This document shows, piece by piece, positions 19,483-37,050 of a stretch of 56,555 nucleotides of DNA; within the stretch, counting starts at the first letter, position 1; every line of letters starts with the position of its first letter. The stretch is from Candidatus Nomurabacteria bacterium (GTDB lineage: Bacteria; Patescibacteriota; Minisyncoccia; Phycocordibacterales; UBA9973), in assembly GCA_037139835.1 (NCBI GenBank), contig JBAXFQ010000004.1:1-56555 (forward strand), given 5' to 3'. Under the pieces are notes generated by a model, which saw only the letters and a list, made by a program, of their open reading frames with translations, was not told where the DNA came from and searched no databases. The position numbers and the translations under genes were made by a program.

Positions 19483-19839
19483 ATGAATAAATTAACTGAA
19501 AAAGAAAAAAGAGTAATTATTGATAAAAATACAGAAGCCCCATTTACGGGAGAGTATGTGAACAATAAGGAAACAGGAGTGTATGTTTGTCGACAATGTG
19601 AAGCTCCACTGTATAATTCAAAAGATAAATTTGAATCTGATTGTGGTTGGCCATCTTTTGATGATGAAATATCTGGAGCGGTGAATAAAAGCTTGGACGC
19701 AGATAAAATACGTACAGAAATTACTTGCGCAAAGTGTGGCGGTCATCTGGGCCATTTATTTATAGGTGAAAATTTAACAGATAAAAATCGAAGATATTGT
19801 GTGAATTCGATTTCAATGAAATTTATTTCTGGAAAATAA
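19483..19839 (+). CDS. msrB: Peptide-methionine (R)-S-oxide reductase
   Basis: [34 protein letters not shown]. Confidence 0.97.
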
Positions 19840-19848
19840 TTTAAATTT

Positions 19849-20337
19849 ATGATTAAAAAAATAGTTTTAGCTGGAGGTTGTTTTTGGGGACTTGAAGAAT
19901 TAATTAGAAGTCAGCCTGGAGTATTAGATACTACTGTTGGATATACAGGTGGGTTTGTAGATAATCCAACATATGAAAATCATGCTGGTCATGCTGAATC
20001 TGTTGAGATTACATACGATGATGCAGTAACTTCATATAAAAATCTTTTAGATTTTTTCTTTCAAATTCACAATCCTACAACTCTAAATCAGCAAGGTAAT
20101 GACAATGGGACATCTTATCGCTCTGCAATTTTTTACGAAAATGAAGAAGAAAAAGAAGAAGCGATAAAATTTATTGATATCGTAAATAATTCAAAACGTT
20201 GGAATGATAGAGTGGTAACAACTCTTGAACCATTAGTAAAATTCTACAAAGCTGAAGACTATCATCAGGATTATCTCCAGAAAAACCCTGAAGGCTATAC
20301 ATGTCATGCTATATATTTTGATAGTTATTTAAAATAG
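19849..20337 (+). CDS. msrA: Peptide-methionine (S)-S-oxide reductase
   Basis: [30 protein letters not shown]. Confidence 0.97.
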
Positions 20338-24970: not shown

Positions 24971-25002
24971 TGTGATATTATCTACATACAACTTAATAGT
25001 TT

Positions 25003-25152
25003 GATATCAGGAGTATGGCGAGAGCACTGGCTCAACGACCCATCAGCAACCCTTAGAGATAAGAAGGTGCTAAATCCAGCCAATAGTTGAAAAACTATAT
25101 GGAAAGATAAGACTAGTCATCTATATCTTTCCTCTTATTAGAGGAATTTTTT
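25003..25152 (+). promoter_or_regulatory. SAM-I (S-box) riboswitch with terminator
   Basis: ATCAGGAG..GAGAGCACTGGCTC..GAC..CAGCAACC..GGTGCTAAATCC..GAAAGAT, followed by TTCCTC/GAGGAA plus a T tract, directly upstream of metK. Confidence 0.92.
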
Positions 25153-25165
25153 AATTTAAAAATGT

Positions 25166-26104
25166 ATGAGTATAAAGACGGCGGAATTTGTGAGTCCTAA
25201 ACATCCAGACAAAATTTGTGATTATATAGCAGATAGTATTCTCGATTCTTTTTTGGAAGGCGATAAAGATAGTCGTTGTGCGATAGAAGTAATGGGAGGA
25301 CATAATTTGATAACAATAAACGGAGAAGTGACTTCAAAAATAAAAATAGATATTGAAAAAATCGTAAAAGATATAGTTGGTAAGGATAATAAAATTATTT
25401 CAAATATAGTAACACAAAGTCTCCAAATAGCTTTTGGTGTAGATAACGGGGGAGCAGGAGATCAAGGAATAATGAAAGGTTATGCAACGAATGAGACAGA
25501 AGAATATTTACCTCTCGAGTATAGTCTTGCTCGTAATCTTTGCATGAAAGTATTTGAAGTTTATCCTTATGATGGTAAGACTCAGGTAACTATAGAAAAC
25601 GGAAAAGTAAAAACAGTTGTATGTAGTTTTCAAAATACAAAAAATGATAAATTGTTAGAACTGGTAAAAAGTATTATTGAAGCAAAAGAGTATCATATTA
25701 ATCCATCTGGTGAATGGAATCAAGGAGGTTTTGATGCTGATACAGGTCTTTCAGGTAGGAAGCTTATAGTAGATAATTATGGACCAGAAGTGACAATAGG
25801 CGGCGGATCATTTTCTGGTAAGGATTATACTAAAGTCGATAGATCTGGGGCTTATATGGCTCGTATGGTAGCTGTAGACTTACTTAAAAAACATAAGGCA
25901 AGGGAAGTTTATACAAAGCTTGCATATGCTATAGGTAAAAGTGAACCAGTCATGGCAGTAGCAGTGATAGATGGGAAAGAAATTGATATAGAAGGATATG
26001 ATTTGTCACCAAGAGGTATATATAAGAAATTAAAACTCGACAATGTAAAGTATAGAGATACTTGTACTTGGGGTCATTTCGGAAGAAGTTTTAATTGGGA
26101 TTAG
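25166..26104 (+). CDS. metK: S-adenosylmethionine synthetase (short form)
   Basis: HPDKICD, GAGDQG, DGKTQVT, DTGLSGRKLIVDNYG, GGGSFSGKDYTKVDRS, GHFG. Confidence 0.97.
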   Translation: MSIKTAEFVSPKHPDKICDYIADSILDSFLEGDKDSRCAIEVMGGHNLITINGEVTSKIKIDIEKIVKDIVGKDNKIISNIVTQSLQIAFGVDNGGAGDQGIMKGYATNETEEYLPLEYSLARNLCMKVFEVYPYDGKTQVTIENGKVKTVVCSFQNTKNDKLLELVKSIIEAKEYHINPSGEWNQGGFDADTGLSGRKLIVDNYGPEVTIGGGSFSGKDYTKVDRSGAYMARMVAVDLLKKHKAREVYTKLAYAIGKSEPVMAVAVIDGKEIDIEGYDLSPRGIYKKLKLDNVKYRDTCTWGHFGRSFNWD

Positions 26105-27045: not shown

Positions 27046-27210
27046 ATGAGCTCAAAATCCACAATTATGGTTTTTATGATAGTTGGCTCTACTGTAGGTA
27101 GTTTGATACCTATGATATGGGGAGCTACATTTTTTGATACATCATCGGTCATATTAACTGCTGTAGGAGGAGCTTTTGGTATATGGCTTGGTTTAAGAAT
27201 CAGTAATTAA
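27046..27210 (+). CDS. 54-aa two-helix glycine-rich membrane protein
   Basis: Hand translation MSSKSTIMVFMIVGSTVGSLIPMIWG...VGGAFGIWLGLRISN. Confidence 0.75.
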   Translation: MSSKSTIMVFMIVGSTVGSLIPMIWGATFFDTSSVILTAVGGAFGIWLGLRISN

Positions 27211-27270
27211 TTTTTTCAATTTATAGCAGTCGAATTTTATTAGTTTATATAATAATTTTTTAAAAATAAT

Positions 27271-27789
27271 ATGTATATTTCAATAATTTTAGGGACAGGA
27301 AGGGAAGGAAGGCAGTCAGAAAAAGTTTCTAATTATATGTTACAAGAAATAAAGAAGAATAATATCCAAGGTGAAGTCATAGATGCTCGTGATTATAGAA
27401 TTGAATCGACCGATGCATCAGGTATATCGGAAAAAGCTATAAAATATAGAGATATTATTAATAAATCTGATGCATTGATAATAGTTTCCCCAGAGTATAA
27501 CCATGGTTATCCTGGTGAATTAAAAATGATGCTAGATATGCTATATAAAGAATATACACATAAACCTGTTGGTTTTTGTGGAGTATCCGCTGGTGGTTTA
27601 GGAGGAGCGAGAGTTGTAGAACAATTAAGATTAGTTTGTATTGAATTTCGTATGATTCCCATCAGAGAAGCTTTGTATTTTTCTACAGTGCAAAATATGT
27701 TTGATGAATTAGGTAATATAAAAGATAATACTTTATCTAGTAGGGTTAAAGTATTTTTAGATGAACTTGTCTCTTTTAAGAATAAATAG
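27271..27789 (+). CDS. NAD(P)H-dependent FMN reductase
   Basis: ILGTGREGRQS, SPEYNHGYPGELK, SAGGLGGAR. Confidence 0.93.
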   Translation: MYISIILGTGREGRQSEKVSNYMLQEIKKNNIQGEVIDARDYRIESTDASGISEKAIKYRDIINKSDALIIVSPEYNHGYPGELKMMLDMLYKEYTHKPVGFCGVSAGGLGGARVVEQLRLVCIEFRMIPIREALYFSTVQNMFDELGNIKDNTLSSRVKVFLDELVSFKNK

Positions 27790-27845
27790 TAAATTCTACC
27801 TTTAATAATTTGCTTTTTATTATTATTTTAAGTTATAATTATTAC

Positions 27846-28187
27846 ATGAAGAAATATATATATGGTTCTATTATTTTAGTATTTCTTCTTGTGTTGGCCT
27901 ACTTATTTTTTTTCAGATTTAACACAAAAAAAGATACTAATATTTATAAAGATTTGCCTATTTACAGTCTAGAACAACTTAAGAGTTATGATGGTACTAA
28001 CCCAGGATTACCTATTTATGTAGGGTTAGATGGTTATGTATATGACGTAACTCCAGGAAAGAGTTTTTATGCTCCAGGTGGAACGTACCACAATATAGCA
28101 GGCACAGATGCTACAAAAGAGTTGCAAATATTCGGAGGAGATATTATTAGAACAAAATACAAAATAGTTGGAAATATTGGTCAATAG
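27846..28187 (+). CDS. Membrane-anchored cytochrome b5-like heme/steroid-binding protein (MAPR type)
   Basis: N-terminal TM helix; YSLEQLKSYDG, IYVGLDGYVYDVT, FYAPGGTY, AGTDAT. Start moved to the ATG at 27846. Confidence 0.9.
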   Translation: MKKYIYGSIILVFLLVLAYLFFFRFNTKKDTNIYKDLPIYSLEQLKSYDGTNPGLPIYVGLDGYVYDVTPGKSFYAPGGTYHNIAGTDATKELQIFGGDIIRTKYKIVGNIGQ

Positions 28188-28200
28188 ATTTTTTTATTTC

Positions 28201-31200
28201 ATGCGATTAAATACTTTTTTTATCATCATTATTGTTGCAATCCTTTTAGTTGGAGGTTATTTTACTTACGATTTTTTGAGTTTAAAAAATAAATCTAAGG
28301 ATGCATTTATATTTCATCAAGATGGAAATAATGTAGGTCAGGAAGGATCTACGAATGCAAATATAAAAAATAATAGCAATATCATTGATGTCCCAAAGAT
28401 AGAAGTTTTGGATTCACAAGTTACACTTTATTGGTCTCCATTACCAAATGCTACAGAGAATCAACTTTATCATATTATCTCAAATGGTGTTGATATTGGA
28501 AGTACTCCATATTTAAAATATGCAGTTATAAATCTTGAGCCACTCAAGACTTATCCTTTTATAGTTGAAGCTGTAGATAATAGCGGAAAGGTTATGGCTC
28601 AATCCTCAGAATTAAATGTAACAACAAAATCAACTCAAGAAGTAGCTTCATCTAAAGATAAAGAAGCTCCTAAGCAAATAACAGATCTATCAAGTTCAAA
28701 TCTTAAGCCAAATTCTGCTGATTTATCGTGGACATCACCTTCAGACTCTCCTTCGGGAGGATCTGTAGCATTTTATGATATACGATATTCTACAAATGAA
28801 ATAACATCTGATTCATGGATTTCTTCTACTCCTATTTCTGGAGAAATAAAACCTCTAAGTCCAGGATCTAAACAAAAATATATATTAGATGGTTTGTCCC
28901 AAGGGCAAAAATATTTTGTAGCTATTCGTTCTATGGATTTAGCTGGAAACACTTCAGATATCTCTAACGTAGTTTCTTTTGGTACACAGGGAAATTTATC
29001 CACATCTGGTTATGTAGAGGAAGATACTATAGCACCTACTGTCCCAAAGAATTTAGTTGCAACAGCTGCTTCTTCTAAACAAGTCAATCTTTCTTGGCTT
29101 GCTTCTACAGATGCTATAGGTGTGTCCGGGTATAATATAAATAGATGTATTGGAGCAAAATGTACTACTGTAACTAAAATAGCTACTTCAAATAAAAAAT
29201 TATATTTTAATATTGGTTTAACACCTTCAACTATTTATCGCTATTCAGTTTCTGCTTATGATGCTGCTGGTAACGTTAGTGCTAATTCTTCAATAGCACA
29301 AGCAACAACTAAGGCAGTATCAGCTGTAGACAATACTGCTCCAACTATACCTACAGGATTAGTTGCTACAGCTACTTCACCTAACCAAATTAATATTTAT
29401 TGGAATGCATCAACTGATTCTGTGGGGGTATCAGGTTATAGGATAAATAGATGTAATAGTTCAGGTTGTACTCCAACTTCTCAGATTGCAACTCCTTCTA
29501 GTCGTTCTTATTCAGATACAGGTCTTATTGCCTCAACTACTTATCGCTATTCTGTATCTGCATATGATGCTGCAGGTAATATAAGTGGATCTTCTTCTGT
29601 ATCACAAGCTACTACAGTAGCAGCTTCTGTTCCTGATGTCGTGACACCTCCCATTGTAAATTTTAATTCTACTTGTGGATCAGGTGGCTCATGTACTGCA
29701 GCTGACATAGCACCTCATAACACACGTGGAAATTGTTGGGTTTATTTATATGGTCCTTTTACTTCAAAATTTACTTCAAATAAGGCTTATAATATTACTA
29801 GCTACGTAGCTAATGGTAGTAATCATCCAGGAGGAGATATCATTGTTCCTTATTGTGGACAAAATATTTATGATTACTTTATTCTCGGAAATGGCAACGG
29901 TTGGAGTCATACATCTTCTGCTATTAATACAGTTCTCCAAGCTTACTATATCGGACCTTTTTCTTCTTCATCTGTACCTCTCACTCCTACATTAGATACA
30001 GTAGCTCCAACTACACCTAGTGGTTTAACAGCAACAGCATTTTCTTCCTCTCAAATAAATCTTTCTTGGAATGCATCAGCTGATGCTGTAGGAGTGACAG
30101 GGTATAAAATATATAAAAATGGTACACAGATTACTACTACAAGTAATACTTCATATTCTAGTACAGGTCTTTCGTCTGCCACATTGTATACTTACTATGT
30201 AGTTGCTTATGATACTGCTGGTAATAATAGTAATTCGTCATCAACTGCTCAAGCAACTACTCAATCATTAACTTCAACACAAACTTGTGGTACTGGTGGT
30301 TCTTGTACGGCCGCAGATATTGCTCCTCATAATACCCGTGGAAATTGTTGGGTGTATCTAAGTGGTCCTTTTACTTCAAATTTTACTTCAAATAAGGCAT
30401 ATAATATAACTAGCTATGTAGCAAACGGTAGTAGTGGCCATCCAGGAGGAGATATCATTGTTCCTTATTGTGGACAAAATATTTATGATTACTTTATTCT
30501 CGGAAATGGCAACGGATGGAGTCATTCGTCATCTGCTATTAATACAGTCCTTCAAGCTTATTACATTGGACCTTTTACAGGATCATCAAATAATAATAAT
30601 AATGCATCAGATACAACAGCCCCTACTGCTCCTACAGGATTAATTGCTAAAGTTATTTCTTCTTCTCAAATAGATCTTTCTTGGAATGCATCAACTGATG
30701 CAACAGGAGTAACAGGTTATAAAATATATCAAAATGGAATTCAAATAGACATTGCAACTTCAACTTCGTACTCTGATACAGGTCTGACAAATAATACTTC
30801 TTATACTTATAAGATTGTTGCTTATGATGATGCTGGAAATAATAGTAATTATTCTTCATCAGCACAAGTAACAACCCAAGATAATTCAGATACAATATCT
30901 CCTACCGTATCTCTTGCTGCTCCAGCAGATGGATCAACTGTATCAGGTTCGTCGGTAGTTGTTTCAGCAAATGCAACTGATAATGTGGGTGTTGCAGGAG
31001 TTCAATTTAAACTAGATGGGTCTGATATTAATGCAGAAGATACAGTATCTCCATATTCTATAATTTGGAACAGTGTCATTTTCCCAGACGGTTATCATTT
31101 GTTGACGGCTTTAGCTAGGGATGCAGCAGGTAATACTACAGTTTCTCTTTCGAGAACTATAAATATTTTAAATAATATAGTAACTTCTGATACCACAGCA

Positions 31201-32400
31201 CCTTCTGTGCCTACAAGTTTTGTAGCTTCTGCTGTTTTATCTACTCAGATTAATCTAACTTGGACAGCTTCAACTGATGCAGTTGGGGTAACTGGATATA
31301 ATATTAATAGATGTAATGGTTCTGGATGTACACCTATAGCAAATGTATTTAATACTTCAAATCATTCATATTCTGATACTGGTTTAGCAGCTTCAACTTT
31401 GTATCGTTACTCTATCTCAGCTTATGATGCTGCAGGGAATACAAGTTCTAATTCTTCTATTTCTCAGACAACAACATTAGCAGCTTCTGTTTCAGATACT
31501 ACGGCACCTACAGTGCCTAGTGGTTTGGTTGCTACAGCTATATCCTCATCTCAAATCAATCTAACTTGGACAGCTTCAACTGATGCTGTTGGAATAACTG
31601 GGTACAATATTAAAAGATGTAGTGGCGCAAGTTGTACTCCAACTCAGTTTATTACTACTACTTCTAATTCATATTCAAATACAGGTTTGATTGCTTCAAC
31701 TTTGTATCGTTACTCTATCTCAGCTTATGATGCTGCAGGGAATACAAGTTCTAATTCTTCTATTTCTCAGGCAACAACTTCAGCAGTTGTTGTATCAGAT
31801 ACTACACCACCAGTCTTATCTGGAGGATCTCCATCAGGATCACAAGCTTCTGGTACTACTCAAGTAACACTATCAGTAACTACCAATGAAAATGCTACGT
31901 GTAAGTATTCTTCTGCATCAGGTACAACTTACTCTTCTATGTCTAATACTTTCTCTACTACTGGAGGAACTAGTCATTCTACTGTTGTAACAGGGTTAAC
32001 AAATGGAACAAGTTATAATCGTTATGTAAGGTGTCAAGATGTAGCTGGAAATTCAAATACAAGTGATTATACTATTTCATTCTCTGTGGCTGTAGCTCCT
32101 GCCTCTACTTGTGGTACGGGAGGAACTTGTTCTGCTTCTGATATAGCACCTCATAATACTCGGGTAAATTGTTGGGTTTATATGAGTGGAACTTTCACAA
32201 CGAAATTTACAGCAAATAAAGCTTATAATATAACAAGTTATGTTACTAATGGTAGTACACATCCTGGTGGGGATGTAATAGTATCTCACTGTGGAGGTAA
32301 TCTTTATTCTTATGTTGTAGGTACAAGTGGAGGTCATGCTCACTCAAGTAGTGCAATAAATACAATTCTTCAAGCTTATTATATAGGTCCATTTCAGTAA
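28201..32400 (+). CDS. Large membrane-anchored surface protein with about 8 FN3, 2 Ig-like and 3 cytochrome b5-like domains
   Basis: N-terminal TM helix; repeated DTxAPTxPxGL...LSWxASTD.VGV.GY...AYDAAGN (FN3); three repeats of HNTRxNCWVY..KAYNIT..HPGG..H(S/T)SSA..YYIG. Confidence 0.9.
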   Translation: MRLNTFFIIIIVAILLVGGYFTYDFLSLKNKSKDAFIFHQDGNNVGQEGSTNANIKNNSNIIDVPKIEVLDSQVTLYWSPLPNATENQLYHIISNGVDIGSTPYLKYAVINLEPLKTYPFIVEAVDNSGKVMAQSSELNVTTKSTQEVASSKDKEAPKQITDLSSSNLKPNSADLSWTSPSDSPSGGSVAFYDIRYSTNEITSDSWISSTPISGEIKPLSPGSKQKYILDGLSQGQKYFVAIRSMDLAGNTSDISNVVSFGTQGNLSTSGYVEEDTIAPTVPKNLVATAASSKQVNLSWLASTDAIGVSGYNINRCIGAKCTTVTKIATSNKKLYFNIGLTPSTIYRYSVSAYDAAGNVSANSSIAQATTKAVSAVDNTAPTIPTGLVATATSPNQINIYWNASTDSVGVSGYRINRCNSSGCTPTSQIATPSSRSYSDTGLIASTTYRYSVSAYDAAGNISGSSSVSQATTVAASVPDVVTPPIVNFNSTCGSGGSCTAADIAPHNTRGNCWVYLYGPFTSKFTSNKAYNITSYVANGSNHPGGDIIVPYCGQNIYDYFILGNGNGWSHTSSAINTVLQAYYIGPFSSSSVPLTPTLDTVAPTTPSGLTATAFSSSQINLSWNASADAVGVTGYKIYKNGTQITTTSNTSYSSTGLSSATLYTYYVVAYDTAGNNSNSSSTAQATTQSLTSTQTCGTGGSCTAADIAPHNTRGNCWVYLSGPFTSNFTSNKAYNITSYVANGSSGHPGGDIIVPYCGQNIYDYFILGNGNGWSHSSSAINTVLQAYYIGPFTGSSNNNNNASDTTAPTAPTGLIAKVISSSQIDLSWNASTDATGVTGYKIYQNGIQIDIATSTSYSDTGLTNNTSYTYKIVAYDDAGNNSNYSSSAQVTTQDNSDTISPTVSLAAPADGSTVSGSSVVVSANATDNVGVAGVQFKLDGSDINAEDTVSPYSIIWNSVIFPDGYHLLTALARDAAGNTTVSLSRTINILNNIVTSDTTAPSVPTSFVASAVLSTQINLTWTASTDAVGVTGYNINRCNGSGCTPIANVFNTSNHSYSDTGLAASTLYRYSISAYDAAGNTSSNSSISQTTTLAASVSDTTAPTVPSGLVATAISSSQINLTWTASTDAVGITGYNIKRCSGASCTPTQFITTTSNSYSNTGLIASTLYRYSISAYDAAGNTSSNSSISQATTSAVVVSDTTPPVLSGGSPSGSQASGTTQVTLSVTTNENATCKYSSASGTTYSSMSNTFSTTGGTSHSTVVTGLTNGTSYNRYVRCQDVAGNSNTSDYTISFSVAVAPASTCGTGGTCSASDIAPHNTRVNCWVYMSGTFTTKFTANKAYNITSYVTNGSTHPGGDVIVSHCGGNLYSYVVGTSGGHAHSSSAINTILQAYYIGPFQ

Positions 32401-32423
32401 TAGATGAGAACTATAAAAAATAT

Positions 32424-33416
32424 ATGAAAATATTTTATTTTGCAACTTTTATATTATTTGTAATATTGGGATTTGGTTTTTATGTGAAAGAAACATATCT
32501 TCCCCCTGTTATTTCAAATGAAGTTATTCCTAATCCTATTAATGTAGTAGATGTATCTTCCTCTGCCCCTATTGCGGTAGAATCACCGGTAACTCCCATT
32601 AATGAAACGATAGTAGCTAAGCCTTTATCAATCAGTAAAGAAGAAAGTAATAATGAAGAAGAAAATATAAAAATAAATCCTCCATCTGCTCCTACATTAC
32701 TCTCATTTGTTATCTCATCTCCAACTCAATTGAATTTAAAATGGAACAAATCTTTTAGTAATTTTAGCGATGTAAAATATCGTGTATATAAGAATAGAAA
32801 AGAACTAGGAACTACTATTAATTTGTATTATGCTGACGTTGACTTTTCTTCTACTGCTACTTATACTTATTATGTTGTTGCCTTTGATAGTAATAATAAC
32901 GAATCAACTCCTTCAAATCTGATAACTGTAGTATCCGGTAAAACAAATTTAGCTGTAACTAAACCTGCTGCAACTGTGGTAGTCACTAAACCGACCGTAT
33001 TACCTTTAGTCAAACCAAAATCAACTCCAACTCAAACTACTACCTCAGTAACAAAACCAACTCCAACTCCGAATCCTGCACCTACTCCGGCCCCTGCACC
33101 GGCACCCAAAGCCCCATCTTGTGGATCAGGAGGATCTTGTACTGCTTCTGATGTGTCTTCACATAACACTCGTGCAAATTGTTGGGTGTATCTAAGTGGT
33201 CCTTTTACTAGTAAATTTACAGCAAATAAAGCTTATAATATAACAAATTATGTAGCCAATGGTAGTATGCATCCAGGAGGTGATGTAATAGCAGCTCTCT
33301 GTGGTAAAAATCTTTATGATTACATGGTTTCAGGTACGGGGAGTGGTGGGGTTAAACATTCTTCAAATGCAATAAATAGTATTCTTCAATCTTATTATAT
33401 CGGTTCATTTAATTAA
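32424..33416 (+). CDS. Membrane-anchored protein: FN3 domain, Pro/Thr linker and a cytochrome b5-like domain
   Basis: N-terminal TM helix, FN3, a PTPAPAP linker and the same b5 repeat with HPGG and KHSSNA. Confidence 0.9.
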   Translation: MKIFYFATFILFVILGFGFYVKETYLPPVISNEVIPNPINVVDVSSSAPIAVESPVTPINETIVAKPLSISKEESNNEEENIKINPPSAPTLLSFVISSPTQLNLKWNKSFSNFSDVKYRVYKNRKELGTTINLYYADVDFSSTATYTYYVVAFDSNNNESTPSNLITVVSGKTNLAVTKPAATVVVTKPTVLPLVKPKSTPTQTTTSVTKPTPTPNPAPTPAPAPAPKAPSCGSGGSCTASDVSSHNTRANCWVYLSGPFTSKFTANKAYNITNYVANGSMHPGGDVIAALCGKNLYDYMVSGTGSGGVKHSSNAINSILQSYYIGSFN

Positions 33417-33423
33417 AATAATT

Positions 33424-33966
33424 ATGTCATACAATAAAACAAAAAAAATAATTTCATCAATATCAAAATCGAAAATTTCATTTTTGACGTTAACAATGTT
33501 GTTAGTATTTACTTTTATAATTGGCTGGTTTGTCTCCAGAAACTTTCAACCAAAGTTGATGGCAAGTATAAATAAAATATATAGAATTGGACAAGTTGTA
33601 ACAGGAGAAAATTATTCTTTTTATGTAAAAGGAGTTCGATATGATGAAAAAGGAGCAGGTCCTTTGGTTCCCAAAAAGGGTAATAAATTTATAATTCCTA
33701 AAATAGTTTTAAAAAATACATCAAATATATCTTTTGAATTTATTCCATTTTTATTTTTGTATGTAAAAGATTCAGAAGGTAATGTATATACTTCTGACGC
33801 TATAGTAAGTGAAGGGAACCAATCTTCAGGCTTACTTTCAGCTGGGGATGTATTACAAGAAGAAGTTGGATTTTCAGTTCCTGTAAATGCGAAAGGGCTC
33901 ACATTATTTTTTGAAAACGGTACAACTCAAGGTAATAATGTAACAGCTATAAGTTTGAGCAAGTAA
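33424..33966 (+). CDS. Membrane-anchored Ig-like protein (DUF4352-like)
   Basis: TM helix followed by IGQVV...P..GNKF...LKN...VKDSEGNVY...VGFSVP...LTLFF. Confidence 0.7.
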   Translation: MSYNKTKKIISSISKSKISFLTLTMLLVFTFIIGWFVSRNFQPKLMASINKIYRIGQVVTGENYSFYVKGVRYDEKGAGPLVPKKGNKFIIPKIVLKNTSNISFEFIPFLFLYVKDSEGNVYTSDAIVSEGNQSSGLLSAGDVLQEEVGFSVPVNAKGLTLFFENGTTQGNNVTAISLSK

Positions 33967-33975
33967 TTTATAAAT

Positions 33976-35322
33976 ATGAATCCTTCAATTCCATTAAGAA
34001 AAATAAATTTCAATAAAATAATTATAATATTATTTTTCCTACTTAATTTAGGTGTTATTTTTATATTGTGGTGGATGAAGTCATCGTTTTATATTTTAAA
34101 TCCATCAGGAGGAAATATTTATACAGCTATGGGTAGAATAACTGGACTCTTAGCGAGTTATTTACTTCTTGTTCAATTAATTCTTATAGGTAGAATTCGT
34201 TGGTTTGAATCTGCTTTTGGTTTCGATAAATTGAATAAAATACACCGATTTATTGGTTATGGAGTCATGGTATTTCTACTCTCTCATCCGATTCTTCTTG
34301 TTATAGGAAAAGCAAAACAGCAAGAGGTGTCTTTATATTCTCAATTTGGAGATTATTTAGCTAATTGGCCAGATGTTTTTGCGGCTTTTATTGCTGTAGC
34401 TTTATTTATTTTTATTGTTTTCTTATCTATTTCTGTAGCTAGAAAAAGTTTTCGATATGAGACTTGGTATTTAGTTCATCTTTTGACCTATCTGGCCATT
34501 GGTCTTGCTTTTAGCCATCAATTTACAGGTGGAGATATTAAGGCTGGTTGGCCTATGTATTATTGGTATATAATAAATTTTGTTGTCTTTGGTAGTGTTT
34601 TACTTTATAGATTTTTACGGCCTATATATCTTTTTATTGTTCATCGTTTTGTAATAGATTCTATAGTAAAAGAAACTCATGATACTTGGTCTATAGTTAT
34701 TACTGGTAGAAAAATGGAGAGTTTTAAATTTGCTGCAGGACAATATGCAAATTTAACTATTCTCACAGGCGGTATGCGTTTTTCTCATCCATTTTCTTTT
34801 TCATCAGCTTATAATGGTAAATATGTACGTTTTACTATAAAAAATTTAGGAGACTATACTGCTAAAATACAACTACTAAAGCCAGGTACACATATAGTGC
34901 TAGATGGGCCTTTGGGTCTATTTATACAGAAAAAAGCGAGAAGAGAATTATTCCTTTTTATAGCTGGAGGTATAGGAGTAACTCCTGCTAGAGCTATGCT
35001 TGAATCTTTGGCTCATGAAGGAAGAAATGCTGTACTTTTATATTCTAGTAGAAGTGAAGTGGATGTTGCTTTCAAAAATGAATTCAGCCAAATAATTCAA
35101 ATGGATCCTCTAATATCCGTTCATCATATTTTAGCTACACCTACTCCAGGGTTTGAATCTGGATTTATTGATAAAGAAAAGATTGTTCGTTTAGTTCCAG
35201 ATTTTTACCTAAGAGAGGTATATCTATGTGGTCCGCCTCCTATGATGAGTGCAATGGTTTCAAATCTAAAAGAACTTGGTTTTGATGATAATCATATTCA
35301 TTTTGAAAATTTCTCATTTTAA
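33976..35322 (+). CDS. Ferric-reductase-like transmembrane oxidoreductase with FAD and NAD(P)H binding domains
   Basis: TM His pairs (KIHR...SHP; VHLLTY...SHQ), HPFSFSS, DGPLG, AGGIGVTP, YLCGPPPM, HFENF. Confidence 0.93.
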   Translation: MNPSIPLRKINFNKIIIILFFLLNLGVIFILWWMKSSFYILNPSGGNIYTAMGRITGLLASYLLLVQLILIGRIRWFESAFGFDKLNKIHRFIGYGVMVFLLSHPILLVIGKAKQQEVSLYSQFGDYLANWPDVFAAFIAVALFIFIVFLSISVARKSFRYETWYLVHLLTYLAIGLAFSHQFTGGDIKAGWPMYYWYIINFVVFGSVLLYRFLRPIYLFIVHRFVIDSIVKETHDTWSIVITGRKMESFKFAAGQYANLTILTGGMRFSHPFSFSSAYNGKYVRFTIKNLGDYTAKIQLLKPGTHIVLDGPLGLFIQKKARRELFLFIAGGIGVTPARAMLESLAHEGRNAVLLYSSRSEVDVAFKNEFSQIIQMDPLISVHHILATPTPGFESGFIDKEKIVRLVPDFYLREVYLCGPPPMMSAMVSNLKELGFDDNHIHFENFSF

Positions 35323-35392
35323 AATTTATTCTTTATTTTAAGGATAATTTTGATTTATTGTATAGAATTTTCAGTAAGAGTATAATTATAAT

Positions 35393-36208
35393 ATGAGAAA
35401 AATATTACCATTCATTGTAGTTGTGCTTATAATTATCATTACTGATATATATCTTTATAAGTTGCCTCAAAAGGAGGTAACTGTTACTCCTGTAACTAAT
35501 GATACAATAGTAAATTCTGCTATTTTTAATTGTTTAGAAAATAAAAATATAAAAGCAATTTTTTATGCAAGAAAATTAGAATTAAATCTTAGCGATGGAA
35601 GAAATTTGATTCTTCCTCAAAATATATCAGCTTCAGGAGCTCGTTATACCAATTCAGATGAATCTTTTATTTTTTGGAATAAAGGAGACACAGCATTTGT
35701 TGAAGAAAAAGGTGTAACTACATTTAAGGAATGTTCTATTCCACAAGTAAATTCGAAAAGTAATCAAATAAATAATGATTTAAATAAAACTACATTAACT
35801 AATCCCGCATCTACTAATTGTACTAAGGTAGGGGGAAATCTAATAATAGAAAAGAATGGAAATGGTGATGAATATGGATTATGTTATTTTGAAGACAATA
35901 GAGCTTGCGAAGAGTGGGCGTTGTTAGGAGGAGAGTGCCCTTTAGGTGGTGTTAAAACAACAGGATATGACTCTGTTGATCAAAAATACTGTGCTTGGTC
36001 TGGAGGTCAGACTTTTGCAGTAACAAATTCTATTTGTGTTTTTAAAGATAAATCAAAATGTTCTACTATAGATTTTTATAATGGGAGATGTATTAAAGGT
36101 AAAGTTATAGATAGTCCAGTGGTGTGTCCGATGATAGCAAAGCTATGTCCCGATGGAGCATCAGTAGGTCCTACAGGTCCTAATTGTGAGTTTGTTTGTT
36201 CCAAATAA
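35393..36208 (+). CDS. MliC-like lysozyme inhibitor fused to DUF333-like Cys repeats
   Basis: ISASGARY...FWNKG, NPASTNC..GG...GLC.F....CEEW and a C-terminal CPMIAKLCPDG..VG..GPNCEF. Confidence 0.8.
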   Translation: MRKILPFIVVVLIIIITDIYLYKLPQKEVTVTPVTNDTIVNSAIFNCLENKNIKAIFYARKLELNLSDGRNLILPQNISASGARYTNSDESFIFWNKGDTAFVEEKGVTTFKECSIPQVNSKSNQINNDLNKTTLTNPASTNCTKVGGNLIIEKNGNGDEYGLCYFEDNRACEEWALLGGECPLGGVKTTGYDSVDQKYCAWSGGQTFAVTNSICVFKDKSKCSTIDFYNGRCIKGKVIDSPVVCPMIAKLCPDGASVGPTGPNCEFVCSK

Positions 36209-36300: not shown

Positions 36301-37050
36301 ATGATGTATACAATTTTGGGAATTATCATTGTTTTAATAGCTTCAGGATTAAGGGTTATTAAACAATATGAAAGAGGTGTTATTTTCTTCTTAGGTAAAT
36401 GTACCGGGGTAAGAGGGCCAGGACTTATTTTTGTTATTCCTATTTTTGAACAAATGACAAGAGTCACGATGCGAACAGTAACGATGGCTATACCTTCTCA
36501 AAAAATTATTACAAAAGATAATGTTTCTATTGATATAGCAGCAGTAGCTTATTATCACGTAGTAGATCCAGAAAAATCTGTTATTTCTATTGAAAATGTT
36601 TATAATGCAGTTAATCAAATAAGTCAGACGACAGTACGAAATGTAGTTGGACAATTTCAACTTGATCAGCTTCTTTCTCAAACTGTAGATATTAATTTAC
36701 AAATTAAAAATGTTATTGACTCTCATACCGAACCATGGGGAGCAGAAGTAACAGCTGTTGAAATAAAAGATATAACTCTACCTGATAACATGCAAAGAGC
36801 TATGGCAAAAGAAGCAGAAGCCGAAAGAGAAAGACGTGCTAAGATAGTAGCTGCCGAGGGGGAGTTTCAAGCAGCGGAGAAGCTTGGTCAAGCTGCCGAT
36901 CTGATATCAAAGCACCCAGTGGCATTACAACTTCGCACATTACAAACAATGGCTGAAATAAGTGTAGAAAAAAATTCAACTATTATTTTTCCAGCTCAAT
37001 TTATGACAACTGTAAATGAAGCTATTAAAATGATAAAAGGTGATAATTAA
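36301..37050 (+). CDS. SPFH/stomatin family protein
   Basis: QYERGVIF, GPGL, ITKDNVS, AMAKEAEAERERRAK, ALQLRTLQT. Confidence 0.95.
   Translation: MMYTILGIIIVLIASGLRVIKQYERGVIFFLGKCTGVRGPGLIFVIPIFEQMTRVTMRTVTMAIPSQKIITKDNVSIDIAAVAYYHVVDPEKSVISIENVYNAVNQISQTTVRNVVGQFQLDQLLSQTVDINLQIKNVIDSHTEPWGAEVTAVEIKDITLPDNMQRAMAKEAEAERERRAKIVAAEGEFQAAEKLGQAADLISKHPVALQLRTLQTMAEISVEKNSTIIFPAQFMTTVNEAIKMIKGDN

Follow-up and report, generated by a model that had tools for sequence, protein, structure and literature searches.

Clusters that bring cytochrome b5-domain genes together with ferric-reductase-domain genes are already in print for bacteria of the Candidate Phyla Radiation (CPR). According to the accessible part of a 2021 preprint (bioRxiv 10.1101/2021.11.17.468889), genes of a b5 class termed cytb5MY occur in 36 of 7645 CPR genomes and are accompanied by a putative ferric reductase (pFre) in 29 of these 36, by other cytb5-domain genes in 28 and by two-component systems in 22, while Cyt-b5 lies within 10 kb of a pFre domain in 185 of 1427 CPR genomes and no such co-location is reported outside the CPR. 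The function of the cluster is there called unknown, a membrane complex is suggested and the adjacent two-component system is proposed as ancestral; the words extracellular, signal peptide, disulfide, periplasm and fibronectin do not occur in the accessible main text. In the literature searched, nothing relevant was found that follows up the CPR cytb5MY cluster. Here we analyze a locus of this kind in a 56,555-nucleotide stretch of Candidatus Nomurabacteria DNA (the window; contig JBAXFQ010000004.1 of assembly GCA_037139835.1), in which five genes encode a MAPR-type b5 protein, a 1399-residue FN3/Ig protein with three b5 domains, a 330-residue FN3 protein with a fourth, a DUF4352 protein and a 448-residue oxidoreductase. 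The locus is an elaborate form of the CPR-specific cytb5MY/pFre/cytb5-like cluster, so that an earlier note on this DNA, which had treated the cluster as new, was mistaken in this respect. It shares with the described clusters a Tyr-type MAPR-like b5 gene together with ferric-reductase-domain and cytb5-domain genes, here within 7.5 kb on one strand, and a predicted membrane helix in every protein. It differs from them in lacking a two-component system at the operon (all three Response_reg matches of the genome lie on contig C1 and none on C4), in carrying extra b5 domains on the FN3/Ig and FN3 proteins, and in the presence of the DUF4352 gene in a conserved order. We consider it moderately probable that this system performs an export of electrons, driven by reduced nicotinamide adenine dinucleotide (phosphate), NAD(P)H, to b5 carriers tethered at the cell surface.

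The oxidoreductase has a described counterpart of its own. The portions of two reports on SpNOX drawn on here (PMC11564096, PMC5676040) describe this NADPH oxidase homologue of Streptococcus pneumoniae as an enzyme whose outer heme is highly exposed, which lacks a canonical oxygen site and which under anaerobic conditions reduces cytochrome c directly and faster than it reduces oxygen or iron; SpNOX consumes oxygen and was first described as superoxide-producing, and its authors doubt oxygen as the physiological acceptor and propose that a protein acceptor may exist. In the same portions the authors draw a comparison with the MsrQ-MsrP system of Gram-negative bacteria, in which a ferric-reductase-domain protein also passes electrons via an exposed outer heme to an extracytoplasmic protein. 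Fused domains for flavin adenine dinucleotide (FAD) and NAD(P)H are missing from MsrQ, however, and it is paired with a molybdoenzyme rather than a cytochrome. Multiheme c-type conduits (the Mtr, OmcS and OcwA types) resemble the present system in that heme proteins outside the cytoplasmic membrane possibly move metabolic electrons outward, but the operon proteins have no CxxCH, their hemes would be widely spaced and bound non-covalently, and NAD(P)H rather than a quinone pool would supply the electrons directly. Cellobiose dehydrogenase offers a different likeness, since electrons pass outside the cell from a flavin to a b heme whose cytochrome domain, on a flexible linker, takes them singly to an external partner; it is, in contrast, secreted by fungi, its cytochrome domain has another fold and its electrons cross no membrane.

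The predicted reductase and b5 proteins

The 448-residue protein is assigned to the NOX/FRE family as a ferric-reductase-domain flavocytochrome of the SpNOX type, with two b hemes and cytoplasmic FAD and NAD(P)H domains predicted. It matches SpNOX (8qt6) over its full length (residues 27-447, E 3.8e-21), and its structural model (predicted local distance difference test, pLDDT, 92.8) has long helices to residue 223 followed by a dehydrogenase fold. The best fold matches of this model in Foldseek are the SpNOX structures 8qt6, 8qta and 8qq7, with template modelling (TM) scores of 0.76-0.82. With SpNOX (PDB 8qt6, 8qq7) it has in common a length of about 400-450 residues, six helices, two bis-His b hemes, FAD/NAD(P)H domains and short outer loops; it differs in sequence, the identity being 22-24%, and in context, as SpNOX has no known partner protein whereas the present cluster also encodes candidate protein acceptors. 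The putative heme ligands are H90/H104 and H168/H181; in the NOX/FRE family, the two b hemes are bound by His pairs with this spacing of 13 and 12 residues. Among 36 homologues H104, H168 and H181 are invariant and H90 is conserved in at least 90%, and the positions of the HPFS and GGIGxTP motifs (H271, P272, G331, G332, G334, P337) and the C-terminal F446 are invariant or nearly so. In a tree of these 36 homologues the enzyme is sister to Saccharibacteria NOX with support of 100/99, and the NOX genes linked to b5 genes fall in at least two deep, well-supported clades. A second ferric-reductase domain was not found elsewhere in the genome.

The four b5 repeats carried by the 1399- and 330-residue proteins belong, by profile, ligands and fold, to the classical bis-His cytochrome b5 class, and heme binding is predicted for them. 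They are about 70% identical to one another, with the His of the HPGG motif (H54), the second His (H83) and four Cys invariant. At the DNA level the b5 and FN3 repeats are 60-86% identical and are therefore diverged modules. The model of the b5 domain of the 330-residue protein (pLDDT 89.4) has 34 matches in the PDB at E <= 0.001, the top-ranked being cytochrome b5 proteins; it superposes on cytochrome b558 of Ectothiorhodospira vacuolata (1cxy) with a TM score of 0.81, a root mean square deviation of 2.0 Å and 29% identity. The same protein is the best sequence match of the b5 repeat among solved structures, yet b558 is a single small soluble protein, whereas the b5 domains described here are membrane-tethered, repeated and fused to FN3/Ig modules. 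The domain calls of the earlier note find support in Pfam for all but the FN3 domain of the 330-residue protein, which Pfam misses and BLASTP reveals by its similarity to those of the 1399-residue protein (40% identity, E 1e-12).

A profile of the b5 repeat, searched against 1.84 billion proteins, retrieved 450 cluster representatives at E <= 0.001, of which we analyzed the best 150. These hold 313 domains in 149 proteins, and the two axial His are kept in 305 and 281 and the two Cys in 308 and 313 of the 313 domains. Two to five b5 domains are carried by 105 of the 149 representatives, and 119 of the 142 that start with Met have a hydrophobic N-terminus. The large relatives combine b5 with Big_7, FN3, PKD, InlB-like and SH3 modules, as exemplified by P0009, P0024, P0030, P0033, P0046 and P0049, which are anchored proteins of 866-1615 residues with three to five bis-His b5 domains; the N-terminus of P0046 is a DoxX membrane domain. 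P0151 (1173 residues) is orthologue-like and has the layout of the 1399-residue protein but two b5 domains. We set aside P0037, an apparently dense array of 11 b5 domains, on account of its partial domain matches and missing N-terminal anchor, and a weak match, P0075, was rejected as a family member as it is eukaryotic; the tail of the 450 matches thus grades into general b5 proteins. The literature searched yielded no description of anchored multi-b5 proteins or of tandem, secreted or extracellular bacterial b5, and the family appears to be undescribed there.

The first gene is assigned by its sequence to the Tyr-ligand cytb5MY class of the 2021 preprint. Among solved structures it is most similar to MAPR proteins (1t0g, E 3.9e-13; PGRMC1 4x8y, E 2.1e-6), and Y75 and Y81 align with both Tyr of the FY..PY segment of 4x8y, which occupy the heme-ligand and heme-contact positions of PGRMC1, these roles being as given in the accessible part of the preprint (bioRxiv 10.1101/2021.11.17.468889). 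The Tyr motif is kept in all four orthologues, two of which stand at the same position in the related loci L002 and L003 and a further one in L073; a downstream Lys-Tyr was spotted by eye only. Just 15 residues lie beyond the aligned part, which would leave no room for the MAPR inter-helical insertion (MIHIR). The DUF4352 protein is likely a scaffold or adaptor without a visible cofactor site: five aligned sequences share no conserved His, Cys or Met, and solved structures gave no meaningful match. Its gene also neighbours that of the reductase in L002, L003 and L065, and L066 gives a weak match; L065 is a distant cluster whose NOX is only about 29% identical to that of the window.

Recurrence of the b5-reductase pairing

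A first, pattern-based locus search proved narrow, with 31 stretches matched and 3 confirmed, and was replaced by profile searches of genomes. For co-occurrence we sampled 400 other genomes of the phylum, with coordinates crossed by hand and a ferric-reductase threshold of E <= 0.001; related genomes among them are not independent, which applies to all of the counts that follow. A b5 domain of this class occurs in 36 of the 400 genomes, a full-length NOX-type gene in at least 54 and a ferric-reductase domain in 122. The expected co-occurrence of b5 domains and reductase in other genomes holds in part, since a ferric-reductase domain is present anywhere in 22 of the 36 b5-bearing genomes and is no more than about 1.2 kb away from the b5 gene in 12 of them, while the remaining 14 have none. 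Eight of the 12 adjacencies involve NOX-type genes (from seven families) and four involve short genes with a ferric-reductase domain only. The latter, each next to a small secreted b5 gene, appear from their profile matches to be a second form of the pairing; two of the four rest on weak b5 matches and one on a weak reductase match.

Conservation is closest in L002 and L003, where the whole order of MAPR-like b5, FN3 protein, FN3-b5 (orthologues of the 330-residue protein), DUF4352 and reductase is kept, and the closest loci overall belong to Patescibacteria and Candidatus Saccharibacteria. Local searches found b5 neighbours of NOX in three further genomes, one of which has a larger cluster (L073) with the order b5, NOX, b5, MAPR-like b5, NOX, b5. 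Distant lineages share the adjacency of b5 and ferric-reductase genes, with either gene coming first. The genome's closest relatives, in the same family and order, have neither the b5 nor the reductase domain, and the distribution of the cluster is therefore patchy. Fifteen "orphan" b5 proteins are of the same anchored, bis-His kind with the Cys pair; no neighbour gene common to these 15 was found beyond one genus.

Other carriers stand beside the enzyme in some genomes. Anchored proteins of the cupredoxin/plastocyanin type abut NOX homologues in two other Patescibacteria genomes (L075 and L076), and elsewhere an MsrB/SelR gene adjoins a NOX homologue. Cupredoxins serve solely as electron carriers. 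These neighbours support the notion of an enzyme family that feeds small extracytoplasmic one-electron carriers; they suggest that the reductase family pairs with different small carriers of this kind. The gene for an NAD(P)H-dependent flavin mononucleotide (FMN) reductase, which the earlier note had placed just upstream, does end only 56 nt before the MAPR-type b5 gene, but no homologue was found in any of 18 related loci examined, and we reject it as a part of the system.

Proposed electron export, heme capture and other possible roles

An extracellular position is predicted for the b5 domains on the basis of N-terminal anchors, a Cys pair and a copy that carries a signal peptide and a peptidoglycan-binding domain. 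As had been proposed, each of the first four proteins has a single N-terminal hydrophobic segment, at residues 5-23 of the MAPR-like b5 protein and 3-21 of the 1399-residue protein, for example. The N-flank is more positively charged than the C-flank in all 16 anchored b5 proteins of the window and related loci, which predicts an external b5 domain. The near-invariant Cys pair is likewise consistent with an extracytoplasmic protein: the HPG motif, the second His and two Cys of the repeats align with 1cxy, an exported protein that has a disulfide. A sixth b5 domain, the only Cyt-b5 domain of the genome outside the window, lies at the C-terminus of a Cys-rich protein of 926 residues that carries a cleavable signal peptide. 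In another genome, a b5 protein encoded next to a NOX gene has a lipobox, the signal of a lipoprotein. Topology prediction thus bears out the outward orientation assumed in the earlier note.

In the mechanism that we propose, NAD(P)H would reduce the FAD of the SpNOX-like protein on the cytoplasmic side of the membrane, and electrons would cross the membrane singly through two bis-His b hemes. From the exposed outer heme they would pass not, or not only, to oxygen but to b5 cytochromes tethered to the membrane at its outer face, namely the MAPR-like b5 with its predicted Tyr ligand, the FN3-b5 protein and the 1399-residue protein with its three b5 domains, with the peptidoglycan-binding b5 protein encoded elsewhere in the genome as a further possible carrier. 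As tethered, mobile one-electron carriers, the b5 domains could then deliver electrons to an external acceptor, for which the candidates are oxygen, chelates of ferric iron or other metals, and some component of a host cell surface. Domain identities, ligand residues, folds, predicted topology, recurrent gene adjacency and the missing markers of heme synthesis are observed, whereas we infer that the b5 domains are loaded with heme, that the reductase passes electrons to them, in which direction these flow and what accepts them.

Several observations weigh against this proposal or narrow it. By flank charge, the window's own MAPR protein is only marginally oriented outward (+3 versus +2), and the flank-charge rule holds in three of four MAPR-like proteins. 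Fourteen of the 36 b5-bearing genomes have no ferric-reductase domain at the threshold used and in another 10 the domain is encoded away from the b5 gene, so that the b5 class can exist without the reductase; in the other direction, a b5-type neighbour lies within 1.5 kb at only 5 of the 29 best NOX loci. A continuous conduit along an extended stalk, as first imagined for this locus, is disfavored by the spacing of the b5 domains in the 1399-residue protein, which are separated by 105 and 507 residues (41-666 residues in relatives). Electron tunnelling is limited to roughly 14 Å, and a fixed wire along the stalk is therefore unlikely; it is more plausible that the b5 carriers swing on flexible tethers. 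NOX-type enzymes moreover export electrons electrogenically, which lowers the membrane potential, as is familiar from phagocyte NOX physiology. Export would therefore come at an energy cost and would represent a sink for reducing power or a tool that acts on the surroundings rather than energy-conserving respiration. Taken together, the outward electron-transfer reading of the earlier note is reasonable and partly supported.

The heme economy of the genome (768 kb in 26 contigs, 96.85% complete) bears on this proposal and on its rivals alike. ALAD, ferrochelatase and URO-D were not found in it, as the earlier note had anticipated in supposing that heme synthesis is missing; nor were cytochrome bd subunit I, heme-copper oxidase subunit I or the cytochrome c assembly protein (Cytochrom_C_asm), while control genomes gave matches for all of these. 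With synthesis markers missing, the hemes must be acquired from outside. CxxCH is absent from the five operon proteins (the 1399-residue protein has 22 Cys and none in this motif), and no frame of at least 100 residues in the genome has two or more, in keeping with the suggestion that the system would need no cytochrome c maturation. A search for ferrous iron uptake with FeoB_N returned five frames of 202-612 residues that resemble ordinary GTPases, and the control matched 14 of 14 control genomes. Among the kinds of heme protein searched, the predicted hemes of the b5/reductase system are the only heme use found in the genome.

The strongest rival explanation is heme capture or storage, in which surface b5 and MAPR-like domains would act, much like the NEAT-domain proteins of Gram-positive bacteria, as heme receptors or reservoirs of a heme auxotroph and the reductase would consume the captured heme or reduce its iron. 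The missing synthesis markers require heme to be scavenged, the placement of several b5 domains on long surface proteins and one on a peptidoglycan-binding protein resembles that of wall-anchored heme receptors, MAPR proteins are heme chaperones in eukaryotes, and the genomes with b5 and no ferric-reductase domain point to a role of b5 that is independent of the reductase. However, bis-His b5 proteins are classical electron carriers, and we know of no six-coordinate bis-His b5 that serves as a hemophore. The comparison with NEAT/Isd systems also fails at the level of components, as there is no NEAT match among the Pfam matches of the operon proteins and a search of the genome for Peripla_BP_2, the class-2 binding protein of heme or siderophore importers, found none. 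The cupredoxins that replace b5 beside some NOX homologues fit an electron carrier rather than heme handling, and the adjacency of b5 and ferric-reductase genes is far above chance placement among about a thousand genes. We therefore judge heme capture as the principal role to be rather improbable, though it could coexist with electron transfer; if the b5 domains are heme stores instead, they would represent a new kind of heme capture.

Less likely than heme capture, and in our estimate a slightly more improbable role, is oxygen handling, whereby the reductase would be a true NAD(P)H oxidase at the surface that produces superoxide or peroxide or removes oxygen, with b5 tuning or extending its activity. 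The oxygen consumption of SpNOX and its first description as a superoxide producer speak for this, as do the Fe/Mn superoxide dismutase encoded in the genome and the failure to find a terminal oxidase, which would make another route of oxygen disposal useful. In contrast, the SpNOX structure has no canonical oxygen-reduction centre and its authors, in the portions cited above, doubt oxygen as acceptor, and oxygen handling leaves unexplained both the need for multiple b5 domains with a MAPR-like b5 and the cupredoxin in place of b5 elsewhere. It is very improbable that the 1399-residue protein is mainly an adhesin whose b5-like domains bind lipid, sterol or another host molecule beside a meaninglessly adjacent reductase, because, despite the FN3, Ig, PKD, InlB-like and SH3 modules that accompany b5 in large relatives as in adhesins, and the steroid binding in the Pfam family name, both heme-ligating His are conserved in most of the 313 domains, the fold matches heme-binding b5 proteins, and adjacency to ferric-reductase-domain genes recurs in distant lineages and both gene orders.

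Electron export to tethered b5 carriers would have several consequences. The cluster encodes candidate protein acceptors beside the enzyme, which makes the acceptor idea put forward for SpNOX testable with purified proteins. CPR bacteria generally lack respiratory chains, and a redox system at the surface that draws on NAD(P)H would let them shed reducing power or act on their surroundings or hosts. Such a system would need imported heme and would therefore tie the redox biology of the cell to the supply of its partners. We put forward only tentatively, and consider unlikely as a whole, the more far-reaching picture of a patescibacterial extracellular electron transfer that runs wholly via scavenged, non-covalent b hemes, from an SpNOX-type enzyme through b5 on FN3/Ig stalks and a peptidoglycan-binding protein to an external or host acceptor. 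If this picture were true, the physiological protein acceptor missed by the structural work on SpNOX would be identified, and anchored surface proteins with multiple b5 domains would form a broad class that is as yet undescribed.

Feature coordinates, assembly support and neighbouring genes

The features discussed above are collected in Table 1. The five genes occupy 27846-35322 on the plus strand with intergenic gaps of 13, 23, 7 and 9 nt, exactly as the co-oriented genes with gaps of 7-23 nt had been placed from the letters.

Table 1. Coordinates of the cluster genes, their b5 repeats and related features in the window and in other sequences
Feature	Position	Strand	Details
FMN_red family gene (NAD(P)H-dependent FMN reductase)	27271-27789	+	Pfam FMN_red E 1.1e-30; no hydrophobic anchor
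MAPR-type Cyt-b5, 113 aa	27846-28187	+	Pfam Cyt-b5 35.2 bits (cut-off 23.7)
FN3/Ig protein, 1399 aa	28201-32400	+	Pfam fn3 7 stretches, Big_7, Cyt-b5 3 stretches (58.8 bits; cut-off 23.7)
b5 repeat 1 of 1399-aa protein, aa 490-588	29668-29964	+	Profile match E 4.2e-62; both His and Cys pair
b5 repeat 2 of 1399-aa protein, aa 694-793	30280-30579	+	Profile match E 8.9e-61; His ligands and Cys pair
b5 repeat 3 of 1399-aa protein, aa 1301-1399, C-terminal	32101-32397	+	Profile match E 2.3e-57; His ligands and Cys pair
FN3-b5 protein, 330 aa	32424-33416	+	FN3, Pro/Thr-rich linker, C-terminal bis-His b5 33111-33413; Pfam Cyt-b5 30.4 bits (cut-off 23.7)
DUF4352 (Ig-like) anchored protein	33424-33966	+	Pfam DUF4352 38.1 bits (cut-off 25.9)
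SpNOX-type oxidoreductase (predicted), 448 aa	33976-35322	+	Pfam Ferric_reduct 70.4 bits (cut-off 28), FAD_binding_8, NAD_binding_1
Secreted Cys-rich protein (predicted), 926 aa	G000 contig C1 115257-118037	+	Cleavable signal peptide, PG_binding_1, C-terminal b5 of operon class
Small secreted b5 gene and short ferric-reductase-only gene	G083:C4 ~15.7-16.4 kb		Profile matches; 209-226 aa frames, no FAD/NAD module
Small secreted b5 gene and short ferric-reductase-only gene	G037:C1 ~206.1-207.3 kb		Profile matches; 209-226 aa frames
Small secreted b5 gene and short ferric-reductase-only gene	G202:C1 ~162.6-163.8 kb		Profile matches; 209-226 aa frames
Small secreted b5 gene and short ferric-reductase-only gene	G110:C2 ~19.4-20.1 kb		Profile matches; 209-226 aa frames
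Larger cluster b5, NOX, b5, MAPR-like b5, NOX, b5	L073 6064-10864	+	One of the three further genomes
Anchored cupredoxin/plastocyanin-type protein abutting NOX homologue	L075 6564-6983	+	Other Patescibacteria genome
Anchored cupredoxin/plastocyanin-type protein abutting NOX homologue	L076 3676-4167	-	Other Patescibacteria genome

In a run from another study, contigs cover 30 of 30 bins of 27200-35400, many pieces without differences, and the repeat-rich 1399-residue gene is therefore not an artefact of the assembly of one data set; the whole gene is spanned by no single contig. Within the FN3 repeats, at 31390-31692, one lake metagenome contig joins back by 303 nt, either because the number of repeats varies or because the repeats induced the join. 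At 32687-32768 and 34129-34294 a second contig set with many clustered differences is present in one run from another study and suggests a related strain with the same operon in the same habitat. A scan of the proteins with NCBIfam gave no matches above curated cut-offs. The terminator scan found none in the gaps between the five genes, and the promoter scan, with 42 promoter-like sites against a shuffle mean of 49.3, is uninformative on transcript boundaries; a promoter picked by eye upstream of the MAPR gene fails the criteria of the scan and was dropped.

Downstream of the reductase gene by 70 nt, an anchored protein with MliC (lysozyme inhibitor) and DUF333 domains is encoded at 35393-36208 and was not found in the related loci. 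A Band_7/SPFH gene follows at 36301-37050, two genes downstream of the reductase, and another (L070 8037-8813) adjoins the b5-NOX pair of a distant genome, a recurrence that may be due to chance. Elsewhere in the window, two adjoining small genes at 19483-20337 have N-termini that are MsrB-like and MsrA-like by eye only, with no signal peptide. A 16S rRNA gene (1-1526) is truncated at the contig start and is followed by protein-coding frames, with no 23S gene within the window. At 25001-25113, an S-adenosylmethionine (SAM) riboswitch lies directly 5' of an S-adenosylmethionine synthetase gene (25166-26104).

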